Below, one piece after another: positions 1,766 to 27,500 of a DNA stretch of 33,715 nt. The first letter of the stretch is position 1, and each line of letters begins with the position of its first letter. Made by a program: the position numbers and the translations under genes. The stretch lies in the IMG/VR virus record IMGVR_UViG_2534682164_000009. One strand, 5' to 3'. Source of the stretch: a virus. Its lineage: Duplodnaviria; Heunggongvirae; Uroviricota; Caudoviricetes. The notes beneath the pieces are model-generated. The model had not been told where the DNA came from and made no database searches. It saw only the letters and a list, made by a program, of their open reading frames with translations.

Positions 1766-2155
1766 TCACAACAGCACCTTCTGAAAATTACCCTGATAGA
1801 AAGCCAGTACACGCTGCATAGCTTCGCTCTTCCGGCACTCGCTACAGATTATGTTTTGACGCCTGTCGTAGCGGCGTATTTCTCCGTCTGGTAATGACCA
1901 GATAAGGTCAGGATCAACCACAGATGGTTTCTTCAGATTTGCCCTTGAGAGTTTTTTGCGGGCGTTTTGCCAGTCCTTACGCGCCTGTTCAGACGGGAAT
2001 AACCCGTAACCAGAGTTGTATACATCGCCACTGGCAACCAGCTCTCTGGCGAGAACACTCATCAGATATCTTGTCGCACCTGTCTTGGCTTCCAGTTGCC
2101 GCAACGTCTCGCGACCGCTCAGACGTACAAGTTCAACAACCTGCCCTTTAATTTT
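1766..2155 (-). pseudogene. 5'-truncated phage-like gene of unknown function; N-terminus removed at the IS600 copy B boundary
   Basis: Reverse-strand frame is open from the IS boundary (2155) to the stop at 1766 (…KIKGQVVELVRLSGRETLRQLEAKTGATRYLMS…); the track start at 2104 is a TTG codon; no start upstream. Confidence 0.45.
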
Positions 2156-2219
2156 TGAGGTAGCCTGAGTTTAACGGACACTCCTTCCTGAAATAGAATG
2201 GCATCAGAAGGAGCTAATA

Positions 2220-2522
2220 ATGAGCAGAAAAACCCAACGTTACTCTAAAGAGTTCAAAGCCGAAGCTGTCAGAACGGTTCCTGAAAATCAACTTTCGATC
2301 AGTGAAGGCGCTTCCCGATTATCTCTTCCTGAAGGCACTTTAGGACAATGGGTTACCGCCGCCAGAAAAGGGCTCGGTACTCCTGGTTCCCGCACGGTGG
2401 CTGAACTGGAATCTGAAATTCTGCAACTGCGTAAGGCGTTAAATGAAGCTCGCCTTGAGCGAGATATATTAAAAAAAGCAACAGCGTATTTTGCACAGGA
2501 GTCGCTGAAAAATACGCGTTAA
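2220..2522 (+). CDS. IS600-like OrfA
   Basis: 100-aa IS3-family OrfA (MSRKTQRYSKEFKAEAVRTV…KKATAYFAQESLKNTR). Confidence 0.9.
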   Translation: MSRKTQRYSKEFKAEAVRTVPENQLSISEGASRLSLPEGTLGQWVTAARKGLGTPGSRTVAELESEILQLRKALNEARLERDILKKATAYFAQESLKNTR

Positions 2523-2557
2523 TCGAACAATGGCGACAACAATTTCCCATTGAAGCG

Positions 2558-3376
2558 ATGTGTCAGGTATTTGGTGTATCCAGGAGCGGTTATTACAACT
2601 GGGTACAGCATGAACCCTCAGACAGAAAACAAAGTGATGAGCGGCTAAAACTGGAGATTAAGGTGGCACATATCCGCACTCGCGAAACATATGGAACCCG
2701 GCGGCTCCAGACGGAGCTGGCAGAGAATGGCATCATCGTTGGTCGTGACCGACTGGCACGTCTTCGTAAGGAGCTAAGGCTACACTGTAAGCAGAAACGC
2801 AAGTTCAGAGCGACTACGAACTCGAACCACAATCTGCCAGTTGCGCCAAATCTGCTGAACCAGACGTTCGCTCCTACAGCACCAAATCAGGTCTGGGTGG
2901 CGGACCTGACGTATGTTGCCACACAGGAGGGATGGTTGTACCTCGCTGGCATCAAAGATGTTTATACGTGCGAAATTGTCGGCTACGCCATGGGAGAGCG
3001 CATGACAAAAGAGCTGACAGGTAAAGCCCTGTTTATGGCGCTCAGGAGCCAGCGCCCACCTGCCGGGCTAATCCACCACTCTGATCGAGGTTCACAGTAC
3101 TGCGCATACGATTACCGGGTCATACAGGAGCAGTCTGGTCTGAAAACATCAATGTCGCGTAAAGGTAACTGTTACGACAACGCTCCGATGGAAAGCTTCT
3201 GGGGAACGCTGAAAAATGAGAGCCTGAGCCACTATCGTTTTAATAACCGGGATGAAGCCATCTCAGTAATACGGGAATACATTGAGATTTTCTACAATCG
3301 TCAGCGTCGTCACTCTCGTCTGGGGAATATCTCCCCGGCAGCCTTCAGGGAAAAATATCATCAGATGGCTGCTTAA
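2558..3376 (+). CDS. IS600-like OrfB (DDE transposase; made as OrfAB by -1 frameshift)
   Basis: 272-aa ORF in the -1 frame relative to orfA, with DDE-type IS3-family motifs (…HSDRGSQY…YDNAPMESFWGTLK…). Confidence 0.9.
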   Translation: MCQVFGVSRSGYYNWVQHEPSDRKQSDERLKLEIKVAHIRTRETYGTRRLQTELAENGIIVGRDRLARLRKELRLHCKQKRKFRATTNSNHNLPVAPNLLNQTFAPTAPNQVWVADLTYVATQEGWLYLAGIKDVYTCEIVGYAMGERMTKELTGKALFMALRSQRPPAGLIHHSDRGSQYCAYDYRVIQEQSGLKTSMSRKGNCYDNAPMESFWGTLKNESLSHYRFNNRDEAISVIREYIEIFYNRQRRHSRLGNISPAAFREKYHQMAA

Positions 3377-3628
3377 AAAAAGAACAAATGGTAGTGTCCG
3401 CTATTGCCAGTACACCTCATCCATCACCGAAAAAAATTGGCTTTTACACCATTGGCGATAAAAGCATTTACCTGTATGACCTACGCCGCATGGATGAAAT
3501 CATGGAGGCTCTTGATAATCGTTCGTCGATGGATTGGTGTGTTGCTGTTCATGATATGAATGCAGGGTTTGATGAAAAGATTTTGTTCCCCTCATCAGTT
3601 GAAAGCACTGCGGGTTAAGGAGTAACAC

Positions 3629-4137: not shown

Positions 4138-4217
4138 CCTGGCCTGAAGCATTAACAACGGTAGGAATTGCGATGGCGGTGGCGCTGGTGGTGTATTCGA
4201 TTTGCCGCTGGGGATAA
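4134..4217 (+). CDS. putative 27-aa single-helix membrane peptide
   Basis: Own translation [30 protein letters not shown] overlaps the preceding stop (ATGA). Confidence 0.3.
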
Positions 4218-4428
4218 AAACGGTTTGCGGGAAAAGGAGAGTTAAGTAGAATTGCAGCGGGTGCTTGAGGCTATCTGTCTCAGGCATGAACACCAAAAGG
4301 CAGATAGAGAAAAGCCCCAGTTAACATTACGCGTCCGGCAAGACGCTTAACATTAATCTGAGGCTCAATCTATGAACGGCAAATCTAGGTTAGCCTCTTA
4401 CGTGCCGAAAGGCAAGGAGAAGCAGGCT

Positions 4429-4584
4429 ATGAAGCAGCAAAAGGCGATGTTAATCGCCCTGATCGTCATCTGTTTAACCGTCATAGTGACGGCACTGGTA
4501 ACGAGGAAAGACCTCTGCGAGGTACGAATTCGAACCGGCCAGACGGAGGTCGCTGTCTTCACAGCTTACGAACCTGAGGAGTAA
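4429..4584 (+). CDS. hokD: Hok/Gef-family type I toxin (HokD/RelF-like)
   Basis: 51-aa MKQQKAMLIALIVICLTVIVTALVTRKDLCEVRIRTGQTEVAVFTAYEPEE matches the Hok family and, as recalled, HokD; intrinsic terminator follows; an in-frame upstream ATG (4372) could extend it. Confidence 0.85.
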   Translation: MKQQKAMLIALIVICLTVIVTALVTRKDLCEVRIRTGQTEVAVFTAYEPEE

Positions 4585-4652
4585 GAGACCAGGCGGGGGA
4601 GAAATCCCTCGCCACCTCTGATGGGTCAGGCATCCTCAATGCACCCACACTT

Positions 4653-4679
4653 AACCCGCTTCGGCGGGTTTTTGTTTTA
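4653..4679 (+). terminator. rho-independent terminator after hok
   Basis: Hairpin AACCCGC-TTCG-GCGGGTT followed by a T-run. Confidence 0.7.
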
Positions 4680-4800
4680 TTTTCAACGCGTTTGAAGTTT
4701 TAGATGGTGCCGGAATAGAATCAAAAATACTTAAGTAGCGCGCAGGGAGAAGAGGGATGGACCCCGAACAGGGGAGTGCTATTTATCTGGAAGGATTCTG

Positions 4801-5064
4801 TTGATGAAAATCGAAGAATTACGTGAAATTTTTAGTGAAGATGGCCTCTATACTGTGCGCGTTGAGAATGGCGCTATTGTCAGCCACTGCCGTATTAAAT
4901 GTTTACAGTCTCAACAAAGGAAGAGTGGAGCTGCGTTAATTCATTTTGTGGATGGGCTTGTGACGGATGGTTTTATTTCGCGTGCAAATGAATTTGTCAC
5001 ATCGTTGCCGTCTCTGAAAGAAGCTGGGATTAAGGCTGGTTTTTCTGCTTTTGAAGATGAGTGA
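4801..5064 (+). CDS. hypothetical small protein, Rem-like by position next to hok
   Basis: 87-aa ORF; neighbourhood hok - small ORF - YdfU-like - Q resembles recalled K-12 Qin order hokD-rem-ydfU-quuQ. Confidence 0.45.
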   Translation: MMKIEELREIFSEDGLYTVRVENGAIVSHCRIKCLQSQQRKSGAALIHFVDGLVTDGFISRANEFVTSLPSLKEAGIKAGFSAFEDE

Positions 5065-5130
5065 ATTCATCTACAATTCAGCGCAGGGCTGAACCCCTGT
5101 TGAGTAACACTGTGCCACCGGAGAAAGCCG

Positions 5131-5409
5131 ATGGCGCAAAATTCCAGACTACACAATTCTGATAATTCAGCCGTCTTTGCCAGCAGGCACGGGCGGCGCT
5201 CTCACGCATTTAAATCTGATTGGTACCAGCATCCCCCATGCACTGAAGAACAGGCCGAATGGCTCATTCAGTGTTACCGCAGGCGCGGATGCGAGGTTAA
5301 AAAAGCCCTTAGCCTCGACTACCGTCACTGGATAATCTCCGTCAGGCTCCCTTACTCCGAACGGCCAACGCGTCCGTCCCGCACATTCCAGCAACGGATC
5401 TGGAGGTAA
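5131..5409 (+). CDS. hypothetical ORF (92 aa), doubtful
   Basis: Has GGAGA Shine-Dalgarno but an Arg/Trp-rich product; may be an out-of-frame 5' part of the following gene. Confidence 0.25.
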   Translation: MAQNSRLHNSDNSAVFASRHGRRSHAFKSDWYQHPPCTEEQAEWLIQCYRRRGCEVKKALSLDYRHWIISVRLPYSERPTRPSRTFQQRIWR

Positions 5410-5410
5410 T

Positions 5411-6037
5411 GTGCGGGTATTACTTCGACCTGTTCTGGTACCGGAACTCGGTCTGGTTATCGTTAAGCCAGGCCGTGAATCAATGTCAGCATTCCATAAC
5501 GGCAGAATACTGGTGGAGCCGGAACCAAAAAGCATGCGTAATCTGCCGTCCGGGGTCGTTCCTGCCGCTCGCCAGCCGCTGGTGGAAGACAAAACATTGC
5601 TGCCGTTTTTCAGTAACGCACGGGTGATTCGTGCTGCTGGTGGTGCTGGTGCATTGTCTGACTGGCTGTTGCGCCATATTAAATCCTGCCAGTGGCCACA
5701 CGGCGATTATCATCACAGCGAAACCGTCATTCACCGTTATGGTACCGGCGCAATGGTGTTGTGCTGGCACTGCGACAACCAGCTGCGTGACCAGACATCC
5801 GAATCACTCGAGCAACTTGCTCATCAAAACCTGTCAGCATGGATGATTGACGTCATCGGTCACGCAATAAGCGGTACGCAGGAGCGTGAATTATCTCTGG
5901 CTGAATTATCCTGGTGGGCGGTCCGCAATCAGGTGGCGGACGCGCTACCGGAAGCGGTATTACGTCGTTCGCTGGGGTTGCGTGCGGAAAAAATTCGCTC
6001 TGTGTACAGTGAAAGCGACATCATACCGGGAGAGTAG
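5411..6037 (+). CDS. hypothetical prophage protein (208 aa), YdfU/DUF968-like N-terminal part; ends at in-frame TAG
   Basis: Frame is continuous with the YbcO-like ORF across a single TAG at 6035-6037; combined 5411-6469 is 352 codons. Confidence 0.45.
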   Translation: MRVLLRPVLVPELGLVIVKPGRESMSAFHNGRILVEPEPKSMRNLPSGVVPAARQPLVEDKTLLPFFSNARVIRAAGGAGALSDWLLRHIKSCQWPHGDYHHSETVIHRYGTGAMVLCWHCDNQLRDQTSESLEQLAHQNLSAWMIDVIGHAISGTQERELSLAELSWWAVRNQVADALPEAVLRRSLGLRAEKIRSVYSESDIIPGE

Positions 6038-6199
6038 ACAGCCACCAGCATACTGAAGCAGCGCACAAAAAATATTGCGTTACTGCCTCACGTCCACCAG
6101 CAACAGAACCCACCACAGGAAAAGACGGTGGTCAGCATTGCCGTTGATCCGGAGTCACCGGCTCAGTATCTCCAGCGCCAGAAATCACAACGGGAAGAG

Positions 6200-6469
6200 A
6201 TGCCTGTATACACGCGCTGGGTAAAAACGCAGAAATGCATGACGTGTGGCAATCAGGCAGATGATCCGCATCACATCATTGGTCATGGACTGGGAGGGAT
6301 GGGAACAAAGGCTGATGATTTGTTTGTTATTCCGTTATGCCGTAAATGCCGTAACGAACTACATGCCGGAGTAAAAGATTTTGAAGAGAAACACGGCAGT
6401 CAGCTGTTGTTGCTGATTCGTTTTTTAATGCACGCGAGAAATTCGGGTGTTCTGAAGTGGAAAGCATAA
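6200..6469 (+). CDS. YbcO-like (DUF1364) putative zinc-binding nuclease domain
   Basis: MPVYTRWVKTQKCMTCGNQADDPHHIIGHGLGGMGTKADDLFVIPLCRKCRNELH… shows the Cys/His pattern recalled for YbcO; stop abuts rusA start. Confidence 0.5.
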   Translation: MPVYTRWVKTQKCMTCGNQADDPHHIIGHGLGGMGTKADDLFVIPLCRKCRNELHAGVKDFEEKHGSQLLLLIRFLMHARNSGVLKWKA

Positions 6470-6850
6470 ATGACCGAGCGCATAGAATTTGTTTTACCTT
6501 ACCCGCCGACGGTGAACACTTACTGGCGTCGTCGTGGCAGCACATATTTTGTATCAAAAGCCGGGGAGCGTTATCGCCGGGCAGTGGCGCTTATTGTTCG
6601 CCAGCAGCGGCTGAAATTAAGCCTGTCCGGAAGGTTGGCAATAAAAATTATTGCAGAACCACCGGATAAGCGCCGCCGTGACCTGGACAATATTCTGAAA
6701 GCGCCGCTGGATGCGCTGACGCATGCGGGGTTGCTAATGGACGATGAGCAGTTTGATGAAATCAATATCGTTCGTGCTCAGCCAGTATCTGGTGGACGTC
6801 TGGGGGTGAAGATTTATCCCATAATGCTTGAAGGGCAGGTCAAAAAATGA
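6470..6850 (+). CDS. rusA: RusA Holliday-junction resolvase
   Basis: 126 aa with RusA-type sequence (…YWRRRG…PDKRRRDLDNILKAPLDALTHAGLLMDDEQ…); stop overlaps Q start (ATGA). Confidence 0.9.
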   Translation: MTERIEFVLPYPPTVNTYWRRRGSTYFVSKAGERYRRAVALIVRQQRLKLSLSGRLAIKIIAEPPDKRRRDLDNILKAPLDALTHAGLLMDDEQFDEINIVRAQPVSGGRLGVKIYPIMLEGQVKK

Positions 6851-7608
6851 AACTGGAAGATTTACCGAAATACTACTCCCCAAAATCCCCCGGCCTGACT
6901 GATGCATCGGCCTCAACGTCGAAAGATGCGCTGAGTATCACTGATGTGATGGCCGCGCAGGGCATGACACAGAATCGGGCTGAGATGGGGGTTTCTGCGT
7001 TCCTTGGGAAAATGGGCATTAGTATGAATGACAGAGAGCGGGCAACAGAATTGCTGACAGAATATGCACTCAGTCGGTGTGATCGCGTGGCGGCGTTAAG
7101 AAAACTCCCGGCAGAAATAAAACCGGCAGTGATGCGTATTATGGCTTCGTATGCGTTTGAAGATTATGCCCGTAGCGCGGCGAGCAAAAAACAGTGCCCC
7201 TGCTGTCACGGAAAAAATTTATTGAAAGCGAGGTTTTTACAAACAAGATCCAGTATCCGGATGGTAAGCCGCCGGTATGGGCAAAGTGTAACGAAAGGTG
7301 TGTATCCGTCTTACTGGGAAGAATGGAAAAAAGTCAGGGAGGTGGTAAAAGTTGCCTGTCCGGAGTGTGGCGGAAAGGGTGAGGTTTCCACCGCCTGTAA
7401 GGATTGCCGTGGGCGTGGTGTCGCCATTCATCGTGAAGAGTCGGTAAAACGTGGTATGCCTGTTATCAGAGACTGCCAGCGTTGTGGTGGTCGTGGCTAT
7501 GAAAGACTACCATCAACGGAGGCATTTAATGCTATATGCGAGGTGACAAACCAGATAACACGCGCGTCATGGGAAAAACAGTTAAGAAATTTTATGATGC
7601 GCTGGTGA
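6847..7608 (+). CDS. late antiterminator Q (phage-82/QuuQ type)
   Basis: 253 aa with repeated CxxCxGxG zinc-finger motifs (CPECGGKG, CKDCRGRG, CQRCGGRG); sits between rusA and a PR'/tR'-like unit. Confidence 0.7.
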   Translation: MKLEDLPKYYSPKSPGLTDASASTSKDALSITDVMAAQGMTQNRAEMGVSAFLGKMGISMNDRERATELLTEYALSRCDRVAALRKLPAEIKPAVMRIMASYAFEDYARSAASKKQCPCCHGKNLLKARFLQTRSSIRMVSRRYGQSVTKGVYPSYWEEWKKVREVVKVACPECGGKGEVSTACKDCRGRGVAIHREESVKRGMPVIRDCQRCGGRGYERLPSTEAFNAICEVTNQITRASWEKQLRNFMMRW

Positions 7609-7672
7609 CCCGGTTTGATATTGAAGAAGCATGGGCTGAGCGGCAGTTAAAAAAGGTAACTAGGTAACAAGG

Positions 7673-7700
7673 TTGATTTTTCCGGAATCTGTGGTAAATT
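7673..7700 (+). promoter_or_regulatory. candidate late promoter PR' (-35 TTGATT, 16-bp spacer, -10 TAAATT)
   Basis: Sigma70-like hexamers just downstream of Q; the -10 equals the lambda PR' -10 as recalled. Confidence 0.5.
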
Positions 7701-24524: not shown

Positions 24525-27500
24525 ATGGGAAAAGGTGGCGGTAAGGCACACACGCCTCGTGAGGCGAAGGATAATCTCAAATCCACGCAGATGATGAGCG
24601 TGATTGATGCGATTGGTGAGGGACTGATAGAAGGTCCGGTGAAGGGACTGCAGAGTATCCTGGTGAACAAAACCCCGCTGACGGACACGGACGGTAATCC
24701 CGTGATACACGGTGTGACGGCGGTCTGACGCGCCGGGGAGCAGGAGCAGACACCACCGGAAGGCTTTGAGTCCTCCGGTGCTGAAACCGGACTGGGCGTG
24801 GAAGTGACGAAGGCAAAACCGGTGACGCGCACCATTACGTCCGCGAACATTGACCGCCTGCGGGTTACCTTCGGGGTGCAGTCACTGGTGCAGACCACGT
24901 CAAAGGGTGACCGAAACCCGACATCCGTCCGCCTGCTGATTCAGTTACAGCGTAACGGTAACTGGGTGACAGAAAAGGATGTCACCATTAACGGCAAGAC
25001 CACCTCGCAGTTTCTGGCGTCGGTGATTCTGGATAATCTGCCTCCCCGTCCTTTTAACATCCGGATGGTCCGGGAGACAGCGGACAGCACCACGGACCAG
25101 CTGCAGAATAAGACGCTGTGGTCGTCATACACCGAAATCATCGATGTGAAACAGTGCTACCCGAACACGGCCATTGTGGGGCTGCAGGTGGATGCGGAGC
25201 AGTTCGGCGGCCAGCAGATGACGGTGAACTACCATATCCGCGGTCGCATCATCCAGGTGCCGTCAAACTATGACCCGGAAAAACGCACGTACAGTGGTAT
25301 CTGGGACGGTAGCCTGAAACCGGCATACAGCAACAATCCGGCCTGGTGTCTGTGGGACATGCTGACTCACCCGCGCTACGGCATGGGAAAACGTCTGGGG
25401 GCGGCGGATGTGGACAAGTGGGCGCTGTATGCCATCGGGCAGTACTGCGACCAGACGGTCCCGGATAGTTTCGGGGAGACCGAGCCGCGGATGACCTTCA
25501 ATGCGTACCTGGCACAACAGCGTAAGGCATGGGACGTGCTCAGTGATTTCTGCTCGGCGATGCGCTGTATGCCGGTATGGAACGGCCAGACGCTGACGTT
25601 TGTTCAGGACCGCCCGTCGGATGTGGTGTGGCCGTACACCAACAGCGATGTGGTGGTGGATGATAACGGCGTGGGTTTCCGCTACAGCTTCAGTGCCCTG
25701 AAGGACCGGCACACGGCGGTGGAGGTGAATTATACCGACCCGCAGAACGGCTGGCAGACCTCCACGGAACTGGTGGAAGACCCGGAAGCCATACTGCGCT
25801 ACGGACGCAACCTGCTGAAGATGGACGCGTTCGGCTGTACCAGCCGCGGTCAGGCCCACCGTGCCGGACTGTGGGTGATAAAGACCGAACTGCTGGAAAC
25901 GCAGACGGTGGATTTCACGCTCGGGTCTCAGGGGCTGCGGCACACACCCGGTGACATCATTGAAATCTGTGATAACGACTATGCCGGGACCCTGACCGGC
26001 GGACGTGTCCTGTCCATTGATGCTGCCACCCGCACTCTGACGCTGGACCGTGAAGTGACACTTCCGGAGACCGGTGCCGCCACGGTGAACCTGATTAACG
26101 GCAGCGGTAAGCCGGTGAGTGTGGACATCACCGAACACCCCGCGCCGGACCGGATACAGGTCAGTACCCTGCCTGATGGTGTGGAGACATACGGGGTGTG
26201 GGGACTCTCCCTGCCGTCACTGCGCCGTCTCCTGTTCCGCTGTGTCTCCGTCCGGGAAAACACGGACGGCACCTTTGCCATCACGGCGGTGCAGCACGTA
26301 CTGGAAAAAGAAGCCATCGTGGATAACGGTGCCCGCTTTGAGCCGCAGTCAGGTTCCCTGAACAGCGTCATCCCACCGGCAGTGCAGCACCTGACGGCCA
26401 GTATCTGGCGCAGGCGAAATGGGACACGCCGCGGGTGGTGAAGGGTGTGCGCTTCAGTCTGCGCCTGACCAGTGGTAAGGGAACGGATGCCAGACTGGTG
26501 ACCACCGCCATCACCGCAGACACGGAGCACCGTTTCAGCGGCCTGCCGCTCGGGGAATACACCCTGACGGTGCGGGCGATAAACAGCTATGGCCAGCAGG
26601 GTGAACCTGCCACCACCACCTTCCGGATTGCCGCACCGGCAGCACCGTCGCGGATTGAGCTGACGCCGGGCTATTTTCAGATAACCGCAACGCCGCATCT
26701 TGCCGTTTATGACCCGACGGTACAGTTTGAGTTCTGGTTCTCGGAAAAGCGGATTGCGGATATCAGGCAGGTTGAAACCAGCGCCCGCTATCTTGGCACG
26801 GCGCTGTACTGGATAGCCGCCAGTATCAATATCAAACCGGGCCATGATTATTATTTTTACGTTCGCAGTGTGAACACCGTTGGCAAATCGGCATTCGTGG
26901 AGGCTGTCGGTCGGGCGAGCGATGATGCGGAAGGTTACTTGGATTTTTTCAAAGGAGAGATAGGGAAAACACATCTGGCTCAGGAGCTGTGGACGCAGAT
27001 TGATAACGGTCAGCTTGCGCCTGACCTGGCTGAAATCAGGACGTCCATTACGGATGTCAGCAATGAAATCACGCAGACTGTCAATAAGAAACTGAAAGAC
27101 CAGAGTGCGGCAATCCAGCAGATACAGAAGGTTCAGGTTGATACAAATAATAATCTGAACAGCATGTGGGCTGTGAAGCTGCAACAGATGAAGGACGGAC
27201 GCCTTTATATTGCGGGTATCGGTGCCGGTATTGAGAATACGCCAGCAGGAATGCAGAGTCAGGTGCTGCTGGCGGCAGACAGGATTGCGATGATTAATCC
27301 TGCGAATGGCAACACAAAGCCGATGTTTGTTGGTCAGGGCGATCAGATATTCATGAACGACGTGTTCCTGAAACGCCTGACGGCTCCCACCATTACCAGC
27401 GGCGGTAATCCTCCGGCATTTTCCCTGACACCGGACGGAAAACTGACCGCTAAAAATGCAGATATCAGTGGCAGTGTGAATGCGAACGCCGGGACGCTCA

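Follow-up and report, generated by a model that had tools for sequence, protein, structure and literature searches.

One gene of the YdfU/DUF968 family has very probably been cut by a C-to-T transition in Shigella sonnei 53G and a small number of its close relatives. The mutated base is position 6035 of the window, the term used here for the whole 33,715-nucleotide stretch of DNA that was analysed. The window is the draft contig ADUU01000022.1 (33,715 bp) of assembly GCA_000188795.2 from S. sonnei 53G, in which the two remnants of the gene are annotated separately, as EFZ54014.1 ("hypothetical protein SS53G_1376") for the 208-amino-acid (aa) product and as EFZ54015.1 for the 113-aa open reading frame (ORF). 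The first-pass annotation had proposed either one gene interrupted by an amber mutation or two genes, and the former alternative was borne out: relatives are single polypeptides, and near-identical intact alleles carry CAG at the place of the stop. This is an ordinary, recent and strain-limited pseudogene in a decaying prophage, of a known kind and without any new gene arrangement.

Translation of positions 5411-6469 in one frame yields 352 codons and a terminal TAA, with a single internal stop, the TAG at codon 209; the first in-frame ATG, GTG or TTG after it is the GTG at 6128 (codon 240). The translation thus agrees with the earlier description of two ORFs (5411-6037 and 6128-6469) in a common frame, separated only by the TAG at 6035-6037, and the coordinates and count of the 30 stop-free codons downstream of it are correct. 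The chance of such an open stretch had been put at about 1 in 4; the arithmetic holds ((61/64)^30 = 0.24), but the comparison with homologues described below makes the estimate irrelevant. At the 5' end, the TAA of the upstream ORF (5407-5409) sits between the GGAGG and the GTG start, the predicted duplex with the anti-Shine-Dalgarno sequence is strong (-10.6 kcal/mol), and RefSeq homologues begin with MRVLL at the same GTG. The features of the locus and of the surrounding prophage are collected in Table 1.

Table 1. Coordinates of the interrupted gene, its parts and the surrounding prophage features in the window.
Feature	Position	Strand	Remarks
DUF968/YdfU-family gene, one amber inside	5411-6469	+	352 codons plus stop; pseudogene in this strain
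Ribosome-binding site GGAGG (5402-5406) and GTG start (5411-5413)	5402-5413	+	read from sequence
Truncated 208-aa product, N-terminal domain	5411-6034	+	CQ...CWHCDN and ELSWWA motifs; annotated EFZ54014.1
Amber TAG from CAG (Gln209), C-to-T transition at 6035	6035-6037	+	alignments with three E. coli genes
Interdomain linker, variable length	6038-6145	+	codons 210 to about 245, now untranslated
Residual ORF, 113 codons, whole C-terminal HNH/His-Me finger domain	6128-6469	+	GTG start, weak Shine-Dalgarno
HNH motif	6236-6364	+	C276-x2-C279, H287-H288, D303, C310-x2-C313, R314, H318; conserved columns of alignment A2
rusA, Holliday-junction resolvase	6470-6850	+	Pfam RusA, E 1.5e-16; RefSeq annotation of homologous loci
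IS1 transposase ORF	941-1444
IS3-family element, two inverted copies	about 2149-3400 and 13489-14751
IS21-family element (IstA/IstB)	14744-16470
Holin	12460-12780		IS elements directly after
Tail genes Z through J, then tail fibres	from 16661

There is next to no chance that the TAG arose as an error in sequencing or assembling the draft contig. When the first 12 kb are compared, the draft does differ from the finished 53G chromosome (HE616528.1, locus L004) at 10 positions, namely two substitutions (40 and 264) and eight single-base indels (174, 182, 4674, 7211, 7290, 7573, 9620, and 11219). Seven of these eight indels lie in or adjoin a run of at least four identical bases, and they are probably draft sequencing errors rather than biology. 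However, the amber is a substitution and not a homopolymer indel, and the finished chromosome is identical to the window across all 1059 nt of the gene, TAG included. The Logan contig SRR6760301_457 likewise matches positions 5411-6469 without a difference, and a further Logan assembly, SRR041667, has the TAG as well. Its presence in the finished chromosome and in two independent read-set assemblies therefore excludes a sequencing error, and the artefact explanation is effectively refuted. The draft indels do touch two other coordinates in the window, those of the antiterminator gene Q (6847-7608) and of an SASA/DUF6645 esterase gene (10563-12415); because of them, Q is 253 aa here versus 273 aa in the finished sequence, and the esterase looks fragmented. 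Farther downstream than the 12 kb compared, the tail tip gene J is divided between two ORFs (24798-26441 and 26435-27976) that overlap and use different frames; the cause could be a genuine frameshift or one more homopolymer error of the draft.

The homologues are continuous across the junction, as single polypeptides of 343-376 aa. A megablast search of 5426 complete E. coli genomes found the region in 4546, and 3002 E. coli records covered at least 80% of the query. In each of the 30 matches listed, the matching place carries one "DUF968 domain-containing protein", and at the three E. coli loci that were examined the annotation shows a single DUF968 coding sequence of 351-352 aa. Similarly, the best 120 protein clusters all comprise 343-449 aa, with 351 or 352 aa in 105 of them. 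More distant relatives were searched for among 1.84 billion cluster representatives: many proteins with 27-50% identity, 320-370 aa long, align uninterruptedly with residues 1-348, so that single polypeptides run over the junction down to about 27% identity. In 148 of the 151 relatives compared, Gln directly follows the conserved D[IV][IV]PGE motif, and a product ending at ...PGE was seen in 53G only. Homologues consistently split at this position, the pattern that would have pointed to two genes, were not found. The window copy does not encode an uninterrupted polypeptide of about 350 aa with both domains; since its TAG falls at codon 209 and its relatives are uninterrupted, it is a pseudogene of the DUF968 family rather than an intact member.

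Family profiles also span the stop. The Pfam DUF968 profile aligns with its positions 1-47 before the stop and 59-169 after it, scoring 40.7 bits for the N-terminal fragment, 160 for the post-stop part, and 215 for an intact homologue (cut-off 27.8). PHROG 96 ("HNH endonuclease", 334 positions) behaves in the same manner, with positions 1-207 before the stop (E 1e-95) and 226-334 after it (E 1e-55). Of the two families against which the first-pass annotation had suggested a search, DUF968 was thus recovered and DUF1364/YbcO was not: the Pfam YbcO model gave no match to the C-terminal fragment at E up to 10, while K-12 YbcO itself scored 144.8 bits. An internal duplication of the two CxxC/His regions was also considered and is unsupported (BLASTP of the N- against the C-terminal fragment, E 0.34).

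Other irregular members of the family came to light. In a metagenome scaffold (SIRA22-1 scaffold_4580; L020:2131-3324), another broken DUF968 gene has aa 1-184 and aa 251-348 on the plus strand and a match to aa 167-235 on the minus strand, which points either to an inversion confined to the linker region or to a faulty assembly. Two E. coli proteins contain internal tandem duplications, one of the N-terminal 60 or so residues (P0046, 411 aa) and one of the linker region (P0047, 449 aa), which suggests that the gene readily undergoes rearrangement or is easily misassembled.

The closest intact gene, from E. coli MLI121 (352 aa; WP_052977201.1), differs from the window at only 3 of 1059 positions. 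At 5811, the window encodes Glu134 and MLI121 Gly; the difference at 6040 is synonymous; and at 6035 the window has T where MLI121 has C, i.e., TAG versus CAG (Gln209). Codon 209 is also CAG in two further E. coli genes in the alignment, and in two partial S. sonnei proteins (P0006 and P0009) Glu134 occurs together with Gln209. Furthermore, the exact read-through sequence with Gln209 exists as a "DUF968 domain-containing protein [Shigella sonnei]" (P0315), which an exact-protein look-up placed on at least 1000 contigs, complete chromosomes among them. By comparison, the 208-aa truncated product was retrieved from two NCBI contigs only, both from 53G, plus Logan assemblies. The amber is thus the sole difference from the intact alleles that disables the gene; within S. 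sonnei it is rare, and the intact allele from which it derives remains the usual form in the species. Given that the Gln209 allele is common and the 208-aa product rare, the amber is a recent and rare change on the standard S. sonnei allele.

A second amber was found in the same gene. In a Logan contig (SRR30464070_584, L013:665-1723) reported for at least 20 read sets, Ser187 is changed from TCG to TAG by a C-to-A substitution at gene position 560, equivalent to position 5970 of the window. This contig has the S. sonnei-type background (Glu134, A at 6040) and keeps CAG at codon 209, so that the Ser187 amber knocked the gene out a second time, independently. Since it occurs in the same allele, selection instead of drift alone may have played a part, and on other contigs the gene contains 1-nt indels. 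However, it is unlikely that S. sonnei benefits from losing the full-length nuclease and that knock-outs recur for this reason. The intact allele, on its at least 1000 contigs, is by far the commonest in the species; the indels fall within homopolymer runs and could be errors in the reads; and with thousands of isolates sequenced, drift is expected to yield two hits in a 1-kb gene whose prophage is decaying. Neutral decay of a gene in a prophage remnant broken by insertion sequences (IS) is the simplest reading.

The amber is situated at the start of the linker between the N-terminal domain and the C-terminal HNH (His-Me finger) domain. In an alignment of 40 diverse relatives (A2), the N-terminal domain is conserved, with the motifs CQ...CWHHDN and ELxWWA, and the linker starts directly past the ...ESDIxP motif, which is the site of the TAG. 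The linker itself is gap-rich, poorly conserved, and carries a 3-nt (one Gln) CAG length polymorphism. The C-terminal domain is again strongly conserved, with the signature C276-x2-C279, H287-H288, D303 (invariant), C310, H314, and H318. In an AlphaFold2 model built from A2 (mean pLDDT 89), residues 1-190 are modelled with high confidence, and pLDDT falls below 50 solely in residues 229-242, inside the linker. In the window allele, C276, C279, H287, H288, D303, C310, and H318 are all present, but codon 314 (6350-6352) encodes Arg where at least 90% of relatives have the His of C-x2-C-H. Among the proteins compared, the sequence is RKCRN in two, versus RKCHN in 94 and RKCHS in 43. As Arg314 is common to the intact S. 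sonnei and MLI121 alleles, the nuclease site may have been altered before the amber arose.

The position of the stop in an interdomain linker raises the question of whether gene fission is in progress, with both parts of the two-domain protein still working: the N-terminal domain on the one hand and, on the other, a separate YbcO/Ref-like HNH protein whose translation starts at GTG 6128. The residual 113 codons encode the complete HNH domain and show no further damage. In addition, a genuine stand-alone homologue of 113 aa occurs in the nin region of another lambdoid element (L019; order P, 62-aa ORF, DUF968-C, ..., Q), and it begins at the equivalent of codon 240, precisely the start of the residual ORF; this shows that the family is modular here. 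YbcO is itself a stand-alone protein of 96 aa, encoded upstream of rusA. However, the Shine-Dalgarno sequence before GTG 6128 is weak (-4.3 kcal/mol versus -10.6 at the true start), and a strong ribosome-binding site was looked for at this GTG without success. The GTG follows the stop at a distance of 91 nt, which precludes coupling, and a promoter and terminator scan of positions 4200-7700 found promoter-like sites no more often than in shuffled sequences and nothing that marks 6128 as a separate transcription unit. Moreover, the same stretch is ordinary coding sequence in the intact alleles, the amber allele is rare and recent, and in the S. sonnei allele the nearly invariant His314 of the HNH motif is replaced by Arg. 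Taken together, these points make a fission into two working products very unlikely. Whether invoked singly or jointly, natural domain fission from GTG 6128 and selection against the full-length protein as the cause of the two S. sonnei ambers form an improbable account.

Under the preferred reading, that of one gene disabled by a point mutation, the C-to-T transition converted Gln209 (CAG) into an amber stop (TAG). Translation would then end there, releasing a 208-aa fragment that keeps the folded N-terminal domain but is devoid of the nuclease-like one, and the 113-codon C-terminal ORF would be made poorly or not at all, because of the distance of its GTG from the stop and its weak Shine-Dalgarno sequence. 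Translation of rusA would probably drop as well: its ATG directly abuts the TAA of the DUF968 gene (TAAATG) and its own Shine-Dalgarno sequence is weak (-3.3 kcal/mol), so that ribosomes would no longer arrive via the upstream gene. From the sequence, the predicted outcome is loss of function of the gene. However, the existence of natural stand-alone C-domain genes with the same boundary means that the fragment may have residual activity.

Full-length protein would still be produced if the UAG were read through in a programmed or suppressor-mediated manner. UAG can be decoded by tRNA-Gln as a near-cognate codon, and both near-cognate and supE-type decoding insert Gln, the very residue of the lost codon; trace read-through would therefore be expected to restore the wild-type Gln, although a use of such read-through finds no support in the data. 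On the other side, the window contains no suppressor tRNA, its tRNAs carrying only the anticodons CAT, TCG, and TCT; the stop is not conserved, Gln being the residue in nearly all relatives; and we know of no read-through signal for the DUF968 family. Read-through is thus highly improbable. In the annotation, a single DUF968/YdfU pseudogene, marked as having an internal stop, should replace the two separate "hypothetical proteins" EFZ54014.1 (SS53G_1376) and EFZ54015.1.

The genomic context is that of a defective, IS-riddled lambdoid prophage. No terminase, portal or head genes were found between the holin gene (12460-12780) and tail gene Z (16661), and since the prophage is defective, relaxed selection on genes of its nin region is expected. 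The DUF968 gene lies in this nin region and adjoins rusA, the location known for the family. The gene order, sok/hok, rem, orf92, DUF968, rusA, Q, is the same in the E. coli loci. A synteny with the Qin prophage had been noted earlier; it stands for hok/sok, rem, the ydfU-like gene, and Q, but rusA, which is absent from Qin, intervenes here between the DUF968 gene and Q. Several RNA genes are also present in the window. Rfam models identify the sok antitoxin RNA upstream of hok (4259-4434) and two copies of the STnc100 sRNA (9664-9853 and 10131-10340) downstream of a tRNA cluster. The tRNA at 9339-9414 is a tRNA-Met (anticodon CAT) according to ARAGORN, but its homologue in E. coli prophages is a tRNA-Ile in RefSeq, in a cluster of the ileZ-argN-argO type downstream of the DNA methyltransferase gene.

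As for the function of the intact protein, DUF968 and DUF1364 proteins together form group 7 of the His-Me finger nucleases, in which YdfU and YbcO are named and for which RusA and Q are noted as neighbours; a role as recombination nucleases, like NinG and RecA-dependent nucleases, has been hypothesised (Jablonska et al., 2017, PMC5714182). The HNH motif of DUF968 proteins has also been described elsewhere (Curtis et al., 2014, PMC4118853). In line with this hypothesis in the literature, the intact protein probably acts as a DNA nuclease in recombination, in the manner of P1 Ref or YbcO; no experiment on DUF968 function was found in the literature. The C-terminal domain fits the His-Me finger fold of PDB 3g27, the sole match of the family profile in the PDB (E 0.3), and a pairwise BLASTP comparison with YbcO aligns the H..G.GTK..C..C core (E 6e-5). 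The links to YbcO at this level are weak but consistent. A phmmer search of PDB sequences with the intact homologue returned one match only, a spurious one to a mitochondrial NADH dehydrogenase subunit (E 0.81).

More generally, the locus offers a clean and datable example of prophage decay in S. sonnei, with little weight beyond annotation. In addition, a stop at the boundary where stand-alone homologues begin constitutes a small natural experiment on the modularity of YdfU/YbcO/Ref-like HNH proteins.

Among the closest known systems is YdfU of the K-12 prophage Qin (b1560; PF06147; PHROG 96), whose length of 349 aa had been given correctly by the first-pass annotation, and which aligns without gaps at 78% identity over 348 aa. 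The two share the two-domain layout, the site between rem and the Q antiterminator gene, and the Pfam and PHROG families. They differ at codon 209, which is Leu in YdfU and TAG in the window, at residue 314, which is His in YdfU and Arg in the window, and in that rusA follows only the window gene. YbcO of prophages DLP12 and 82 (PF07102; PDB 3g27) is a single-domain protein, whereas the corresponding domain of the window is the C-terminal part of a 352-aa protein. Ref of bacteriophage P1 (recombination enhancement function; PDB 3plw) is also an HNH nuclease, but it lacks the N-terminal domain of the window protein and has no significant sequence match to it. Finally, the locus closely resembles the nonsense-mutation pseudogenes of Shigella prophage remnants, in which a single-base stop likewise interrupts an otherwise intact gene within a prophage riddled with IS1, IS3-family, and IS21-family elements; no notable difference separates the window gene from these pseudogenes, of which it is a typical member.
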